A DNA stretch of 64,000 bases, from sequence record OQ378934.1; one strand, given 5' to 3'. The first letter of the stretch is position 1, and the number at the start of each line of letters is the position of its first letter. The DNA is from Escherichia phage LH2. A model generated the notes under the pieces. The model did not search any database, was not told where the DNA came from, and was given only the letters and a program-made list of their open reading frames with translations. The position numbers and the translations under genes were made by a program. Below, in pieces: positions 2,543 through 63,515 of this stretch.

Positions 2543-2763
2543 TGGCAAAGATAATTATTGAAGGTTCTGAAGATGTGCTAAATGCTTTCGCCGAATGGTT
2601 TAGTAATTCAGGCGAACAGCAATTTAATGAAGCGTGGACCATGGGTGATATTGATGGAATTTATCCTACGACAGAAATTTCTGTTCAAGGATATGGCATT
2701 CATGAACCTATTCGTTTAGTTGAATATGATTTGGGAACGGGTGAGGAAGTAGAATATGATTGA
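2542..2763 (+). CDS. Hypothetical protein
   Basis: 73-aa ORF, start overlaps upstream stop. Confidence 0.5.
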   Translation: MAKIIIEGSEDVLNAFAEWFSNSGEQQFNEAWTMGDIDGIYPTTEISVQGYGIHEPIRLVEYDLGTGEEVEYD

Positions 2764-3022
2764 AGATATTAAGGGTTATAAGCCACATACTGAAGAGAAA
2801 ATCGGTAAAGTGAATGCTATCAAAGACGCTGAAGTTCGTTTAGGACTTATCTTTGATGCTTTATACGATGAATTCTGGGAAGCACTAGATAATTGTGAAG
2901 ACTGTGAATTCGCGAAGAATTATGCTGAAAGCCTCGATCAGTTAACTATTGCTAAAACGAAACTCAAAGAAGCTAGTATGTGGGCTTGTCGTGCTGTGTT
3001 CCAACCAGAGGAAAAATATTAA
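2756..3022 (+). CDS. Hypothetical protein
   Basis: 88-aa ORF, overlaps neighbours by a few nt. Confidence 0.5.
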
Positions 3023-3300
3023 TGGCTCAATTAAGCGCAGGGTTTGGTTATGAGTATTATACTGCCCCTCGTCGTGTATCTGTTGTTCCTAAGAAAATTC
3101 AAAGTCTTGATGACTTCCAGGAAGTAGTCCGTAAAGCTTTCCAGGACTACGCACGTTATCTTAAAGAAGATTCACAGGACTGTCTCGAAGAAGATGAAAT
3201 TGCTTACTATGAGCAGCGTCTTGAACAGCTTAAAAACTTACATGAGGTTCGTGCAGAAGTTACAAAGTCTATGAATAAATTGATTAGATTTAAAGAATAA
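3022..3300 (+). CDS. Hypothetical protein
   Basis: Internal ATG at 3022 overlapping upstream TAA; 92 aa ([13 protein letters not shown]...). Confidence 0.5.
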
Positions 3301-10787: not shown

Positions 10788-11756
10788 ATGAAAACTGTAA
10801 CTATCAATAAGGGTATCTACTTCGGTAAAGAAATCTCTGGAACTTTTGAGCTCTTAGGCGAATGGTTCCCAGATAATGCTCCGGTAGATGCACAAGGAGA
10901 TGGTAAAGTTTTTGTTGAAATTGACGGTAAACGTCGCGGTGTTTGGGTTTACAAATCAGATATTTCATATGATGGTGTAAAAGTTGAAGAAGTTAAAGAA
11001 TCGTATGAAGATATGAAAACCCGCATTAACAAAAGATTTAATGTTATGGGAATGATGACGAATGGTATTATTAACGGAAATATTCGTTCATTGATTATCT
11101 CTGGCGCAGCAGGTATTGGTAAAACGTATTCTTTAGATAAAGCTTTAAATAAAGCAAATGATATTGGATACATTGAATATAAAAGCATTAATGGTAAAAT
11201 CTCTGGTATTGGTCTTTATGAACAGCTTTGGAATAATCGTGAAGAGAATTCTGTCCTTTTGATTGATGATGTGGATGTTTTCTCTGATATGGACATTCTT
11301 AATCTTCTAAAAGCCGCTCTGGACACCGGAGAGACCCGTAAAGTCTGCTGGAGCACTGCATCTTCTTACTTAGAAGAAAAAGGCATTGACCGTGAGTTTG
11401 AATTTAAAGGAACGATTGTTTTTATCACAAACGTTGACATTGACCGCGAATTAGACCGTGGTACTAAACTTGCTCCACATTTACAAGCATTAGTGTCCCG
11501 CTCGGTTTATTTAGATTTGGGTGTTCACACTAATGAAGAAATTATGGTCAGGGTTGAAGATGTTATTCTTTCAACTGACATGATGCAAAAGCGTGGTCTT
11601 TCTGATGAAGAAACTTATAAAGCATTATCATGGATGAAAGTTAATGTTAACCGTTTACGCAATGTTTCACTGCGTACTGCTCTTTATCTTGCTGACTTTA
11701 TTATGACCGACAAAAACGGTTGGGAAGAAATTGCTGAGGTTACTCTTCTGAAATAA
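10788..11756 (+). CDS. P-loop ATPase (AAA-like)
   Basis: Walker A GAAGIGKT and Walker B VLLIDDVD; start placed at ATG supplied by the cassette, not the longer track ORF. Confidence 0.65.
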   Translation: MKTVTINKGIYFGKEISGTFELLGEWFPDNAPVDAQGDGKVFVEIDGKRRGVWVYKSDISYDGVKVEEVKESYEDMKTRINKRFNVMGMMTNGIINGNIRSLIISGAAGIGKTYSLDKALNKANDIGYIEYKSINGKISGIGLYEQLWNNREENSVLLIDDVDVFSDMDILNLLKAALDTGETRKVCWSTASSYLEEKGIDREFEFKGTIVFITNVDIDRELDRGTKLAPHLQALVSRSVYLDLGVHTNEEIMVRVEDVILSTDMMQKRGLSDEETYKALSWMKVNVNRLRNVSLRTALYLADFIMTDKNGWEEIAEVTLLK

Positions 11757-57879: not shown

Positions 57880-58140
57880 ATGAAATATGTTAATCGTTCT
57901 ATCGCGGCATTAGTATTAGCAGTATCTTTAGTAGGATGTACTGATGCTGATAACGCAACCAAAGTTTTGTCTTCAAGCGGTTTTACTAATATTGAAATCA
58001 CTGGATACAATTGGTTCGGTTGCTCTGAAAATGATTTCCAGCATACTGGATTTCGTGCTATTGGACCTACTGGGCAGAAAGTAGAAGGAACAGTATGTTC
58101 TGGGCTGTTCTTTAAGGATTCGACTATCCGTTTTAAATAA
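57880..58140 (+). CDS. Lipoprotein
   Basis: MKYVNRSIAALVLAVSLVGC lipobox. Confidence 0.55.
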   Translation: MKYVNRSIAALVLAVSLVGCTDADNATKVLSSSGFTNIEITGYNWFGCSENDFQHTGFRAIGPTGQKVEGTVCSGLFFKDSTIRFK

Positions 58141-58142
58141 AA

Positions 58143-58154
58143 GGCCTTCGGGCC
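58143..58154 (+). terminator. UUCG-loop hairpin after the lipoprotein gene
   Basis: ggcc-ttcg-ggcc. Confidence 0.45.
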
Positions 58155-58209
58155 TTTAGCTTTATGATTACCGGAGTATAATATTCCCGAAACCAAACGA
58201 GGATAAGTG

Positions 58210-59760
58210 ATGATTAAGAATGAAATTAAAATTCTGAGCGATATTGAACATATCAAAAAGCGTAGCGGCATGTACATTGGTTCTTCTGCTAATGAAATGC
58301 ATGAGCGCTTTCTGTTTGGTAAATGGGAAAGTGTTCAGTATGTACCTGGTCTTGTTAAGCTTATTGATGAAATTATCGATAACTCAGTAGATGAAGGTAT
58401 TCGTACTAAGTTTAAATTCGCAAATAAAATTAATGTTACCATTAAAAATAATCAGGTAACAGTTGAAGATAACGGTCGTGGTATTCCACAAGCGATGGTT
58501 AAAACACCTACCGGTGAAGAAATTCCTGGTCCAGTTGCTGCATGGACTATTCCAAAAGCAGGTGGTAACTTTGGTGATGATAAAGAACGCGTCACTGGCG
58601 GTATGAACGGTGTTGGTTCTAGTTTAACTAACATTTTTTCTGTGATGTTTGTCGGCGAAACTGGCGATGGTCAAAATAATATTGTAGTTCGTTGTTCAAA
58701 TGGCATGGAAAATAAATCGTGGGAAACTATTCCTGGAAAATGGAAAGGAACTCGTGTTACTTTCATTCCTGATTTTATGTCATTTGAAACTAATGAGCTA
58801 TCTCAGGTTTATCTTGACATTACATTAGATCGTCTCCAGACACTTGCAGTAGTTTATCCTGATATTCAATTTACCTTTAATGGTAAAAAGGTTCAGGGTA
58901 ATTTTAAGAAATACGCACGCCAATATGATGAGCATGCTATCGTTCAAGAACAAGAAAATTGTTCTATTGCGGTTGGTCGTTCACCGGATGGTTTTCGTCA
59001 ATTAACATACGTCAATAACATTCATACTAAGAATGGTGGCCATCACATTGACTGTGTTATGGATGATATTTGTGAAGACCTTATTCCACAAATCAAACGT
59101 AAATTTAAAATTGACGTAACTAAAGCACGTGTTAAAGAATGTTTGACTATCGTTATGTTTGTTCGTGATATGAAAAACATGCGATTTGATTCTCAAACTA
59201 AAGAGCGTTTGACTTCTCCATTTGGTGAAATTCGTAGTCATATTCAGCTTGATGCTAAAAAGATTTCACGTGCTATTTTAAATAATGAAGCAATTTTAAT
59301 GCCAATTATTGAAGCTGCCTTAGCTCGTAAATTGGCGGCAGAAAAAGCAGCAGAAACTAAAGCAGCTAAAAAGGCCTCTAAAGCTAAGGTTCATAAACAT
59401 ATCAAAGCGAATCTTTGTGGTAAAGATGCTGACACGACTCTTTTCTTGACTGAGGGTGATTCTGCTATCGGATATCTTATTGATGTTCGTGATAAAGAAC
59501 TTCATGGTGGTTATCCATTGCGTGGTAAAGTTCTTAACAGTTGGGGTATGTCATATGCTGATATGCTTAAAAACAAAGAACTGTTTGATATTTGCGCAAT
59601 CACTGGATTAGTTCTTGGTGAAAAGGCATTTGAAGAAAAAGAAGATGGCGAGTGGTTTACTTTCGAACTAAATGGCGATACAATTATCGTAAATGAAAAT
59701 GATGAAGTACAGATTAATGGTAAATGGATAACAGTAGGTGAATTACGAAAAAATCTATAA
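58210..59760 (+). CDS. 39: DNA topoisomerase II large subunit gp39 (GyrB-like ATPase and TOPRIM start)
   Basis: 516 aa from ATG 58210; GHKL ATPase motifs (DNSVDEG, GRGIP, GGMNGVGSS). Confidence 0.9.
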   Translation: MIKNEIKILSDIEHIKKRSGMYIGSSANEMHERFLFGKWESVQYVPGLVKLIDEIIDNSVDEGIRTKFKFANKINVTIKNNQVTVEDNGRGIPQAMVKTPTGEEIPGPVAAWTIPKAGGNFGDDKERVTGGMNGVGSSLTNIFSVMFVGETGDGQNNIVVRCSNGMENKSWETIPGKWKGTRVTFIPDFMSFETNELSQVYLDITLDRLQTLAVVYPDIQFTFNGKKVQGNFKKYARQYDEHAIVQEQENCSIAVGRSPDGFRQLTYVNNIHTKNGGHHIDCVMDDICEDLIPQIKRKFKIDVTKARVKECLTIVMFVRDMKNMRFDSQTKERLTSPFGEIRSHIQLDAKKISRAILNNEAILMPIIEAALARKLAAEKAAETKAAKKASKAKVHKHIKANLCGKDADTTLFLTEGDSAIGYLIDVRDKELHGGYPLRGKVLNSWGMSYADMLKNKELFDICAITGLVLGEKAFEEKEDGEWFTFELNGDTIIVNENDEVQINGKWITVGELRKNL

Positions 59761-60556
59761 TGACTTAATAGTGCGGGGTAAAACCCGCGTTTCTAAATTT
59801 AAGGGTGAAATTCATCATATCCTTCCAAGATCAATGGGAGGTTCTGATGATAAAGAAAATTTGGTGAAACTGACTTTTCGTGAACACTTTTTAGCACATT
59901 TTCTACTATATAAAATTCATCGTAATCGTGAAATGGCATATGCGATGAATAGAATGTTAAACACTGAAAAATATTTACGTTCTAGTAAATTATATGAAAT
60001 TGCTAGAATTTACCATCAAAGAGCAGTATCTGAATGGTCAAAAAACTTTATGAAAGATAAAGTTTTAATGAGAAGTATTAAATCGGGTAAATGCGCCTTA
60101 TTAATTAAAGGATCATTTAACCCAAAGGAATGGTGCGGTGTTAATAAAGGTGTTAAGCTTCCTGGAATTAAAGGCATGACATGCTTTAAAAATGAAAAGG
60201 GCGAAGTTTTTCGTCTTCATGTTAATGATCCACGCATTAAAGCTGAAAAATTAGTTGGTATTGGAAATACTGTTGCTGCTACTGCAAAAGCAGCTGAACT
60301 TGAAAAAGCGAAACCATGGTATAATAAATCAGCGACAAATCCAGAGGCTGTAAAATTAATACCAAATTTATATGAATGGTACGTCACGAAATATGACCCC
60401 GATCATTATAAACGAACAGGAGTTGCTAAATGGAAATCAGTTAATAATATAACTGTGAATTCAAAATTATTCGGCCGAGCATTTAATGAATTTAAACGCG
60501 GTTGGATTCCTGATGAAAAGTTCTATGAGGTGTATAATGAAATTTGTAAAAATTGA
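59738..60556 (+). CDS. mobA: HNH homing endonuclease (MobA-like) inserted between 39 and 60
   Basis: GTG start overlapping the 3' end of 39; HNH motif GEIHHILPRSMGGSDDKENLVKLTFREH; paralog of the 46237 ORF. Confidence 0.75.
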   Translation: MNYEKIYNDLIVRGKTRVSKFKGEIHHILPRSMGGSDDKENLVKLTFREHFLAHFLLYKIHRNREMAYAMNRMLNTEKYLRSSKLYEIARIYHQRAVSEWSKNFMKDKVLMRSIKSGKCALLIKGSFNPKEWCGVNKGVKLPGIKGMTCFKNEKGEVFRLHVNDPRIKAEKLVGIGNTVAATAKAAELEKAKPWYNKSATNPEAVKLIPNLYEWYVTKYDPDHYKRTGVAKWKSVNNITVNSKLFGRAFNEFKRGWIPDEKFYEVYNEICKN

Positions 60557-60674
60557 TTCTTCTAGCGTTGATATGAAAAAATATAAATTGCAGAACAATG
60601 TTCGTCGTTCTATTAAATCCTCTTCAATGAACTATGCGAATGTCGCTATTATGACAGACGCAGATCACGATGGA
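60537..60674 (+). CDS. 60: Topoisomerase II subunit gp60, codons 1-46 (before the bypass)
   Basis: MKFVKIDSSSVDMKKYKLQNNVRRSIKSSSMNYANVAIMTDADHDG ending at take-off GGA 60672-60674. Confidence 0.85.
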
Positions 60675-60724
60675 TAGCCTTCGGGCTATCCATAGAAATA
60701 CCTCATAATTAAGAGATTATTGGA
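60675..60724 (+). other. 60: 50-nt translational bypass (coding gap) of gene 60
   Basis: UAG stop directly after take-off GGA; stem-loop tagc-cttcgg-gcta; landing GGA at 60722-60724; frame resumes at TTA 60725. Confidence 0.85.
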
Positions 60725-61069
60725 TTAGGTTCTATTTATCCTTCTTTGCTCGGATTTTTTAGTAATTGGCCAGAACTGTTTGAACAAGGAAGAATTCGCT
60801 TTGTCAAAACTCCTGTAATCATCGCTCAGGTCGGTAAAAAACAAGAATGGTTTTATACAGTCGCTGAATACGAGAGTGCTAAAGATGCTCTACCTAAACA
60901 TAGCATCCGTTATATTAAGGGACTTGGCTCTTTGGAAAAATCTGAATATCGTGAGATGATTCAAAACCCAGTATATGATGTTGTTAAACTTCCTGAGAAC
61001 TGGAAAGAGCTTTTTGAAATGCTCATGGGAGATAATGCTGACCTTCGTAAAGAATGGATGAGCCAATAG
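60725..61069 (+). CDS. 60: Topoisomerase II subunit gp60, codons 47-160 (after the bypass)
   Basis: LGSIYPSLLGFFSNWPELFEQGRIRFVKTPVII...; combined length 160 aa. Confidence 0.85.
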   Translation, partial: LGSIYPSLLGFFSNWPELFEQGRIRFVKTPVIIAQVGKKQEWFYTVAEYESAKDALPKHSIRYIKGLGSLEKSEYREMIQNPVYDVVKLPENWKELFEMLMGDNADLRKEWMSQ

Positions 61070-61098
61070 TTTACTTTACCACAAGGATGTGGTATAAT
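61069..61098 (+). promoter_or_regulatory. T4-type early promoter (near-identical to 15121-15150)
   Basis: gtttac 61069-61074; tataat 61093-61098. Confidence 0.55.
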
Positions 61099-61123
61099 TA
61101 ATTGGGCAAATGAGGATATTGAA

Positions 61124-61327
61124 ATGAAATCATATAAAGTAAATTTAGAACTATTTGATAAAGCAGTTCATCGAGAATATAGAATCATTCAACGCTTTTT
61201 CGATATGGGAGAAGCCGAAGAGTTTAAAAACCGCTTTAAGGATATTAGAGATAAAATTCAATCCGACACTGCAACTAAAGATGAACTACTAGAAGTTGCT
61301 GAAGTTATTAAACGCAATATGAATTAA
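61124..61327 (+). CDS. Hypothetical protein (rIIA.1 position)
   Basis: 67-aa ORF immediately upstream of rIIA. Confidence 0.5.
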
Positions 61328-61337
61328 TGAGGAAATT

Positions 61338-63515
61338 ATGATTATCACCACTGAAAAAGAAACAATTCTTGGTAATGGTTCTAAATCAAAAGCATTTAGC
61401 ATCACAGCGTCTCCTAAAGTATTTAAAATTCTGTCATCTGATTTGTATACAAACAAGATTCGCGCAGTGGTTCGTGAATTGATTACCAACATGATTGATG
61501 CCCATGCTCTTAATGGAAATCCTGAAAAATTTATCATTCAAGTTCCAGGACGATTAGATCCGCGATTTGTTTGCCGAGATTTTGGTCCGGGTATGAGCGA
61601 TTTTGATATTCAGGGTGATGATAATTCTCCTGGGTTGTATAATTCATACTTTAGTTCATCTAAGGCTGAATCTAATGATTTCATTGGTGGATTTGGTTTA
61701 GGTTCTAAATCTCCGTTTAGTTATACTGATACATTTAGTATTACTTCGTACCATAAAGGCGAAATTCGTGGTTATGTAGCTTACATGGATGGTGATGGTC
61801 CGCAGATTAAACCTACATTCGTAAAAGAAATGGGTCCAAATGATAAAACTGGTATTGAAATCGTAGTTCCAGTTGAAGAAAAAGATTTTAGAAACTTTGC
61901 TTATGAAGTTTCTTATATCATGCGACCGTTCAAAGATTTGGCTATCATTAATGGTCTTGACCGCGAAATTGATTATTTTCCGGATTTTGATGACTATTAC
62001 GGTGTAAATCCAGAAAGATATTGGCCAGATCGTGGTGGATTGTATGCTATCTATGGTGGTATTGTTTATCCTATCGATGGTGTTATTAGAGACCGTAACT
62101 GGTTAAGCATCCGCAATGAAGTGAATTACATTAAGTTTCCAATGGGTTCACTTGATATTGCTCCATCGCGTGAGGCTCTTTCATTAGATGATCGTACTCG
62201 TAAAAATATTATTGAGCGTGTTAAAGAGCTCAGTGAGCAGGCATTTAATGAAGATGTAAAACGATTTAAAGAATCTACATCTCCTCGTCATACATACCGT
62301 GAATTGATGAAGATGGGATATTCTGCTCGAGATTATATGATTAGCAATTCAGTCAAATTTACGACTAAAAATCTGTCATATAAAAAGATGCAGAGCATGT
62401 TTGAACCTGACAGTAAGTTATGCAATGCAGGGGTTGTGTATGAAGTAAATCTTGACCCTCGACTGAAACGCATTAAGCAAAGCCATGAAACTTCAGCCGT
62501 TGCGTCAAGCTATCGTCTGTTTGGTATTAATACGACAAAAATTAATATTGTTATTGATAATATTAAAAATCGTGTTAATATTGTCCGTGGATTAGCACGT
62601 GCATTAGATGATAGTGAATTTAATAACACTTTAAATATTCATCACAATGAGCGTCTTCTGTTTATTAATCCGGAAGTAGAATCGCAGATTGATTTGCTTC
62701 CTGATATTATGGCAATGTTTGAAAGTGATGAAGTTAACATTCATTATTTGTCAGAAATTGAAGCTTTAGTTAAAAGTTATATTCCAAAGGCAGTAAAAAG
62801 TACAGCTCCTCGTCCTAAAACTGCCACTGCGTTTAAGTTTGAAATTAAAGACGGGCGCTGGGAAAAAGAGGAACTGTTTACGCTCACATCAGAAGCAGAT
62901 GAAATTACTGGTTATGTAGCATATATGCATCGTTCTGATATTTTCTCTATGGATGGTACTACATCGCTTTGTAATCCATCTACGAGTATTTTGACCCGTA
63001 TGGCTAATCTTATTGGCATTAATGAATTTTATGTTATTCGTCCACTTTTGCAGAAAAAGGTAAAAGAACTTGGTCAGTGCCAATGTATTTTTGAAACTCT
63101 GCGTGATTTATATGTAGATGCTTTTGATGCTGTAGATTATGATAAGTATGTAGGTTATTCGAGTTCAGCTAAACGATATATTGATAAAATTATCAAGTAT
63201 CCTGAACTAGATTTTATGATGAAGTACTTCAGTGTAGATGAAGTTTCCGAAGAATATACTCGCCTTGGTAATATGGTTAGTTCATTGCAGGGTATATATT
63301 TCAACGGTGGAAAAGATACCATCGGTCATGACATCTGGACAGTAACTAATCTTTTTGAAACACTATCATATAATGCTTCAAAAAACAGTGATAAAATGGT
63401 TGCTGAGTTTACCAAGAAATTCCGTATTGTTTCCGATTTCATCGGTTATCGCAACTCTTTAAGTGATGATGAAGTTTCCCAAATCGCTAAAACTATGAAG
63501 GCCCTTGCGGCCTAA
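61338..63515 (+). CDS. rIIA: Rapid-lysis protein rIIA
   Basis: 725 aa; ATPase-like N-terminal domain; length and position match T4 rIIA. Confidence 0.92.

Follow-up and report, generated by a model that had tools for sequence, protein, structure and literature searches.

Gene 60 of Escherichia phage LH2 very probably carries the T4 programmed translational bypass, on a MobA homing-endonuclease cassette

The window, by which we mean the whole stretch of 64,000 nucleotides of Escherichia phage LH2 that was analysed (OQ378934.1), is on the strength of its sequence a T4-like phage of the genus Tequatrovirus. Between positions 60400 and 61100 its identity is 98.7% with T4 and 99.3% with Escherichia phage vB_EcoM_G50, while Tequatrovirus genomes match larger pieces of it at about 95-96% identity. 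The T4 gene order is kept: 39, mobA, 60, rIIA.1, rIIA. When the window is compared with a phage collection in pieces of 25 kb, the top identity is about 96% and the closest phage shifts by piece, between CE1, PD112 and G50; judged by these matches, the window is not T4 but a mosaic Tequatrovirus without an exact counterpart in the collection. No tRNA genes were found in the window. The features on which the following paragraphs rely are these:

58210..59760, + strand: gene 39, the N-terminal part of the split topoisomerase II large subunit, 516 amino acids, from the ORF list
59628..60733, + strand: MobA/hop mobile element, an insert of 1,106 nucleotides that replaces 64 nucleotides of the uninterrupted topoisomerase gene, delimited by blastn against phage AR1
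59738..60556, + strand: mobA, an HNH homing endonuclease gene, intact ORF with a GTG start, 272 amino acids
60527..60530, + strand: Shine-Dalgarno GAGG, 6 nucleotides upstream of the gene 60 ATG, read from the sequence
60537..60674, + strand: gene 60 segment 1, codons 1-46, from translation, identical to T4
60576..60626, + strand: nascent-peptide bypass signal KKYKLQNNVRRSIKSSS, codons 14-30, from translation and a match to PDB 5np6 chain C, with a role taken from the literature
60628..60667, + strand: predicted 5' stem-loop upstream of take-off, from the fold, same sequence as T4, with a role taken from the literature
60670..60693, + strand: take-off stem-loop, 10 base pairs and a UUCG tetraloop, from the fold and cross-clade covariation
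60672..60674, + strand: take-off codon GGA, codon 46, read from the sequence
60675..60677, + strand: UAG stop, in the A site at take-off, read from the sequence
60675..60724, + strand: untranslated coding gap of 50 nucleotides, stop codon and landing codon included, counted
60713..60715, + strand: internal mini-Shine-Dalgarno GAG, 6 nucleotides 5' of the landing codon, with a role taken from the literature
60722..60724, + strand: landing codon GGA, matching the take-off codon, read from the sequence
60725..61069, + strand: gene 60 segment 2, codons 47-160 and the stop, from translation, matching Pfam TOPRIM_C and identical to T4 gp60
60743..60790, + strand: predicted 3' stem-loop (forward slippage barrier), from the fold, downstream of landing

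Gene 39 matches the Pfam families HATPase_c and DNA_gyraseB and has the same length as T4 gene 39. Its last codons, about 44 of them from position 59628 on, form a C-terminal extension encoded by the insert: collinearity with gene 39 of AR1 stops at 59627. The mobA frame matches PHROG 655, 'homing endonuclease', with E = 2.5e-57, has a weak match to Pfam HNH, and overlaps gene 39 by 23 nucleotides and gene 60 by 20; a GUG start and a 23-bp overlap are described for mobA in PMC2988022.

Gene 60 comes in two segments. From the ATG at 60537, 46 codons spell MKFVKIDSSSVDMKKYKLQNNVRRSIKSSSMNYANVAIMTDADHDG and end with GGA, directly before UAG; from the UUA at 60725, a frame of 114 codons beginning with LGSIYPSLLGFF extends as far as the stop at 61067-61069; compared with the first segment, it is in frame +2. 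The preliminary description had reported a GGA followed by UAG and a second GGA 50 nucleotides further on, and its coordinates are correct. Stop codons are present in the gap in all three frames, at 60675 and 60693 for frame 0, at 60706 for frame 1 and at 60710 for frame 2, so that the halves of the gene cannot be connected by readthrough or by a simple frameshift. The second in-frame stop of the gap is not needed, since phage HY01 has UUG instead of UAG at the equivalent of window positions 60693-60695. The stop codon of gene 60 adjoins a strong sigma-70-like promoter match at 61070-61098, upstream of rIIA.1 (TTTACT, a 17-nt spacer and TATAAT, with a TG, scoring 10/12); the total of promoter-like matches in the region is not above that of shuffled sequences.

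That the frame after the second GGA continues the topoisomerase subunit, as had been proposed, is borne out by its translation and by the uninterrupted homologues, which are colinear with it. If the two segments are joined, the product has 160 amino acids. Solved structures of topoisomerase II, PDB 8yo3 and related entries, contain the T4 gp39-gp60 chain, and the gp60 portion of that chain shows 100% identity to the joined product, whose first 46 residues match the 46-residue nascent chain in 5np6, the structure of the ribosome at take-off. The alignment with 8ylu, an uninterrupted homologue of 611 amino acids, is ungapped across the junction, running from ...AIMTDADHDG directly into LGSIYPSLLGFF... 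In tblastn comparisons, some 1,600 phage records show residues 27-160 in one piece within a single topoisomerase gene, and the same residues are matched as one stretch by PHROG 543, the uninterrupted large subunit. At the DNA level, the alignment with AR1, which has no hop, lacks exactly these 50 nucleotides, between GAT-GG and the next codon, and synonymous differences cluster around the missing segment. A Pfam scan of the joined protein gave no domain match spanning the Gly46-Leu47 junction, because the Toprim domain is divided between gp39 and gp60; collinearity with homologues was used in its place to assess continuity at the junction.

The signals that surround the gap can be described one after the other. 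Residues 1-46 are those of T4 gp60, including Y16, Q19, V22, R24, Y33, M39 and T40 of the nascent-peptide signal; the signal region, already recognized upstream of the gap in the preliminary description, corresponds to residues 14-30. The predicted 5' stem-loop has an energy of -10.8 kcal/mol (z = -2.3). The 5' arm of the take-off stem-loop includes the GGA of take-off as well as the UAG; the structure is predicted at -17.0 kcal/mol, against -14.7 in T4, with z = -5.5 and none of 200 shuffles as stable. A UUCG hairpin at the start of the gap had been described previously: it is indeed present, but it is larger than described, since its 10 base pairs at 60670-60693 include the take-off codon and the stop. 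The mini-Shine-Dalgarno of the landing site sits in A+U-rich sequence (78% A+U). The predicted 3' stem-loop reaches -10.1 kcal/mol, compared to -13.6 in T4, and neither is better than shuffles; this element is reported as poorly conserved (10.1101/2022.08.31.505936).

The possibility that the UUCG hairpin is an intrinsic terminator was considered and rejected: the terminator scan of 59500-61400 yielded no site. An exact scan of IMG/VR with a 19-mer of the take-off hairpin, GGATAGCCTTCGGGCTATC, found four related viral contigs, with the match at positions 11375-11393 in one of them, but the matches belong to a longer hairpin, ACAGGGATAGCCTTCGGGCTATCTCCTGT, in unrelated flanking sequence. These contigs were discarded as instances of gene 60, and the recurrence probably reflects convergence on a stable UUCG hairpin.

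The comparison with T4 is very close, and at the identities to T4 and G50 given above chance is not at issue. The preliminary description had called the arrangement the classic T4 gene 60 hop and had proposed aligning it with T4 gene 60: the alignment bears this out, with a bypass region that matches save for position 60691 and a product without any difference. Over 60520-60780, three bases differ, of which 60691 alone lies upstream of the landing codon, inside the gap. The two phages share the position of the junction at Gly46/Leu47, the GGA/GGA pair, the UAG, the UUCG stem-loop, the 50-nt gap and the GAG mini-Shine-Dalgarno, and are identical in the 46-residue nascent peptide, the sequence of the 5' stem-loop and the 160-residue product. 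At 60691 the window has C where T4 has U, which turns the G·U pair of G60672 in the take-off stem into a G-C pair; the C is common to G50, F26 and HY01, and the U is found in T4 and GRNsp7. Synonymous differences from T4 occur at 60746, 60776, 60784 and 60791, and these four changes account for a predicted 3' stem-loop weaker than that of T4: at 60784, an A stands in place of the G that pairs with C60749 in the T4 fold, leaving a C·A mismatch.

Across 76 nucleotides that span the gap, four records match the window at 100% identity, and the gap sequence itself is that of G50, F26 and 215Ecol030PP. The T4 RefSeq record labels the same 50 nucleotides with a misc_feature, 'non-coding translational bypass region' in the mRNA. 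In the records of G50, GRNsp7, F26, KARL-1 and S16, gene 60 appears as two CDSs, 'frameshift' or hypothetical proteins, where a single joined CDS would be correct. Salmonella phage GRNsp7 (ON720975.1, 321-371) has a gap of 51 nucleotides, with an extra T between the GAG and the GGA and thus a spacing of 7: either bypass tolerates this natural variation in length, or the T is a homopolymer sequencing error.

The gap does not come alone, a context that the preliminary description, right in its interpretation, had left out. In blastn, window positions 58000-59627 align with AR1 878-2505 at 96.4% identity, and 60734-61400 with AR1 2570-3236 at 97.5%; the segment in between, 59628-60733, is an insert that carries mobA and has the hop at its 3' end. 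Within it, the homologous replacement segment 60628-60673 has 76% identity to AR1. For the clade of E. coli phages, Manning & Atkins give a MobA element of 1097-1106 nucleotides, with a deletion of 64 nucleotides and an end 9 nucleotides past the landing codon (10.1101/2022.08.31.505936). The window agrees with this clade 1 MobA/hop cassette (Bonocora et al. 2011; Manning & Atkins 2022) in insert size, in the 64-nt deletion and in end point, as well as in a mobA of 272 amino acids that overlaps both flanking ORFs and in the encoded C- and N-terminal extensions, with no substantive difference; by this comparison, the insert is the published mobile cassette.

The hop is present in 41 of 50,697 phage records, while the flanking gene is matched at high identity in 498, as would fit a mobile element of sporadic distribution. 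According to the part of Bonocora et al. 2011 that is relayed in 10.1101/2022.08.31.505936, MobA nicks targets that have no hop, and the hop protects its carrier. The mobA gene is intact here and broken in the T4 reference, and with an intact mobA the cassette has probably kept its ability to invade relatives that have no hop. In the T4 RefSeq record, only a 'defective' mobA of 114 nucleotides and ORF 60.1 are annotated, and T4 mobA differs from the window by single-base indels, some dozen of them in the interval from about 59870 to 60090, which might reflect genuine decay of the gene or errors made when T4 was sequenced long ago.

Cassettes from other clades allow the signals to be compared over larger distances. 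Five were read directly, from Proteus phage PM2, Salmonella phage S16, Shewanella phage Thanatos-1, Acinetobacter phage KARL-1 and Aeromonas phage Aes012. They share the insertion point in the Toprim motif, and in each of them a single tRNA serves the take-off and landing codons, which are GGG/GGA, GGU/GGC, GGU/GGU, GAU/GAC and GAC/GAC. All five phages have UAG after the take-off codon (6/6 of the other cassettes read overall). They differ from the window in gap length, 17-52 nucleotides compared to 50 here, the 17 belonging to the much reduced Aes012, and in their N-terminal extension, which has only about 55-59% identity to that of the window. The GAG lies exactly 6 nucleotides before landing in T4, PM2, S16 and KARL-1, and the matched codons, the UAG, the GAG spacing and the A+U-rich tail all recur in PM2, S16 and KARL-1; the Thanatos-1 cassette has no recognizable GAG before its landing codon.

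The covariation of the take-off stem was evaluated on six sequences only, extracted by hand. In these six sequences from five clades, 100% of the cells of the 10-bp stem are paired and four pairs show compensatory change; none of 500 shuffles reaches the observed score, and registers slid along the stem pair at 21-41%. A stem-loop that covaries in this way across clades points to selection, and the result agrees with the published survey (10.1101/2022.08.31.505936). Pseudoalteromonas phage vB_Psh_XG4 (301-729) has a gp60-like N-terminal extension whose ORF runs into the topoisomerase without a bypass gap, as though a split gene had lost the hop or had never had it.

A likeness of another kind is offered by the mitochondrial 'byp' elements of Magnusiomyces capitatus (Lang et al. 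2014, as relayed in 10.1101/2022.08.31.505936 and PMC7026636), which combine programmed bypass with inserts of 27-55 nucleotides, matched take-off and landing codons, a stem-loop and the behaviour of mobile inserts. They are unrelated in sequence, host and translation system, an unassigned sense codon follows the take-off codon instead of a stop, and those accounts describe no homing endonuclease partner for them.

Several other readings of the locus must be weighed. The two ORFs could be made separately, as a 46-residue peptide and a C-terminal fragment started independently downstream of the gap. The ORF list does contain an ORF of 107 amino acids that starts with TTG at 60746, and about half of the T4 ribosomes terminate or drop off (PMC7026636), so that the short peptide is also made. 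However, no Shine-Dalgarno precedes this TTG, the upstream sequence being GGTTCTATTTATCCTTCT, and the only GAG of that type in the gap precedes GGA, which is not a start codon; the product would, moreover, miss IMTDADHDG-LGS, a conserved Toprim segment that runs unbroken through all uninterrupted homologues. An independent start of the second ORF was consequently rejected, for want of a start codon with a Shine-Dalgarno, and we hold separate synthesis of the two ORFs to be very improbable.

Even less credible is the removal of the 50 nucleotides from the RNA, by an intron or by other processing, instead of their being skipped by the ribosome. An intron of group I or group II needs far more than fifty nucleotides. 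T4-like phages do have self-splicing group I introns, in td, nrdB and nrdD (PMC2988022), but a scan of 59600-61400 against Rfam matched no family, even at E <= 1, and hence no intron or other curated RNA; the literature describes the 50 nucleotides as persisting in the mRNA, and reviews describe a ribosome that slides over the gap in defined in vitro systems (PMC7026636). It could also be supposed that gene 60 is broken, or that the gap is an artefact of assembly, with ordinary readthrough or frameshifting to rescue the gene, or no rescue at all, as the many GenBank records that annotate two CDSs or a 'frameshift' might suggest. Yet the gap is kept in 41 independent phage records, with at most two differences over 76 nucleotides, the stops in its three frames bar both readthrough and a -1 or +1 shift, and the covariation of the stem-loop across clades indicates selection. 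A broken or misassembled gene can hardly be credited against these observations.

We thus read the locus as the programmed translational bypass of T4 gene 60, carried on a MobA homing-endonuclease cassette in a Tequatrovirus, and give this reading a probability of about 0.95. The system has a long literature (Huang et al. 1988; Weiss et al. 1990; Samatova 2014; Chen 2015; Agirrezabala 2017). In T4, production of the protein across the junction has been shown experimentally, and about 50-60% of ribosomes complete the hop (10.1101/2022.08.31.505936, PMC7026636). For LH2 we infer the mechanism from its near-identity to T4, relying for each step on the T4 work set out in these two sources.

Ribosomes would translate codons 1-46 of gene 60, and the nascent peptide, over about residues 14-46, would grip the exit tunnel and slow the ribosome down. 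Once GGA occupied the P site and UAG the A site, the upper part of the take-off stem-loop would fold in the A site, where it would exclude the release factor and mimic a tRNA for EF-G. The peptidyl-tRNA-Gly would then unpair from GGA while staying on the ribosome, and sliding driven by EF-G, with hydrolysis of GTP, would carry it across the 50 nucleotides, assisted by the 5' stem-loop refolding behind the ribosome. Pairing of the anti-Shine-Dalgarno with GAG would be followed by re-pairing of the tRNA at the landing GGA, and decoding would restart at UUA 60725. The 160-residue gp60 would join gp39 and gp52 to form topoisomerase II. At the level of DNA, the 50-nt insert would, as reported, shield the carrier genome from its own MobA. 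The tryptic peptide SSSMNYANVAIMTDADHDGLGSIYPSLLGFFSNWPELFEQGR in gp60 would be the product that supports bypass.

The few differences from T4 leave some room for variation. Since T4 has the stronger predicted 3' stem-loop, the efficiency of bypass could differ, and a shift might come from the G-C that replaces G·U at the base of the take-off stem together with the C·A mismatch in the 3' stem-loop. We therefore suggest, as a tentative idea that is rather unlikely, that this allele may bypass at an efficiency different from the roughly 50% of laboratory T4, and that the cassette may still be actively invading Tequatroviruses that have no hop. If true, this would be a natural tuning variant of a known mechanism, and no new mechanism.

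This hop is real, was correctly interpreted, and has been known since 1988; nothing in the present instance is new, since the gap sequence was already public in G50, F26 and 215Ecol030PP and the family of cassettes has been surveyed. As the preliminary description illustrates, recoding can be spotted from the raw sequence alone. Recognizing the hop also matters for annotation, gene 60 being subject to a systematic error in many records of T4-like phages. Among cases of programmed translational bypassing, the gene 60 hop was the founding one, and it is a landmark for the mechanics of the ribosome.
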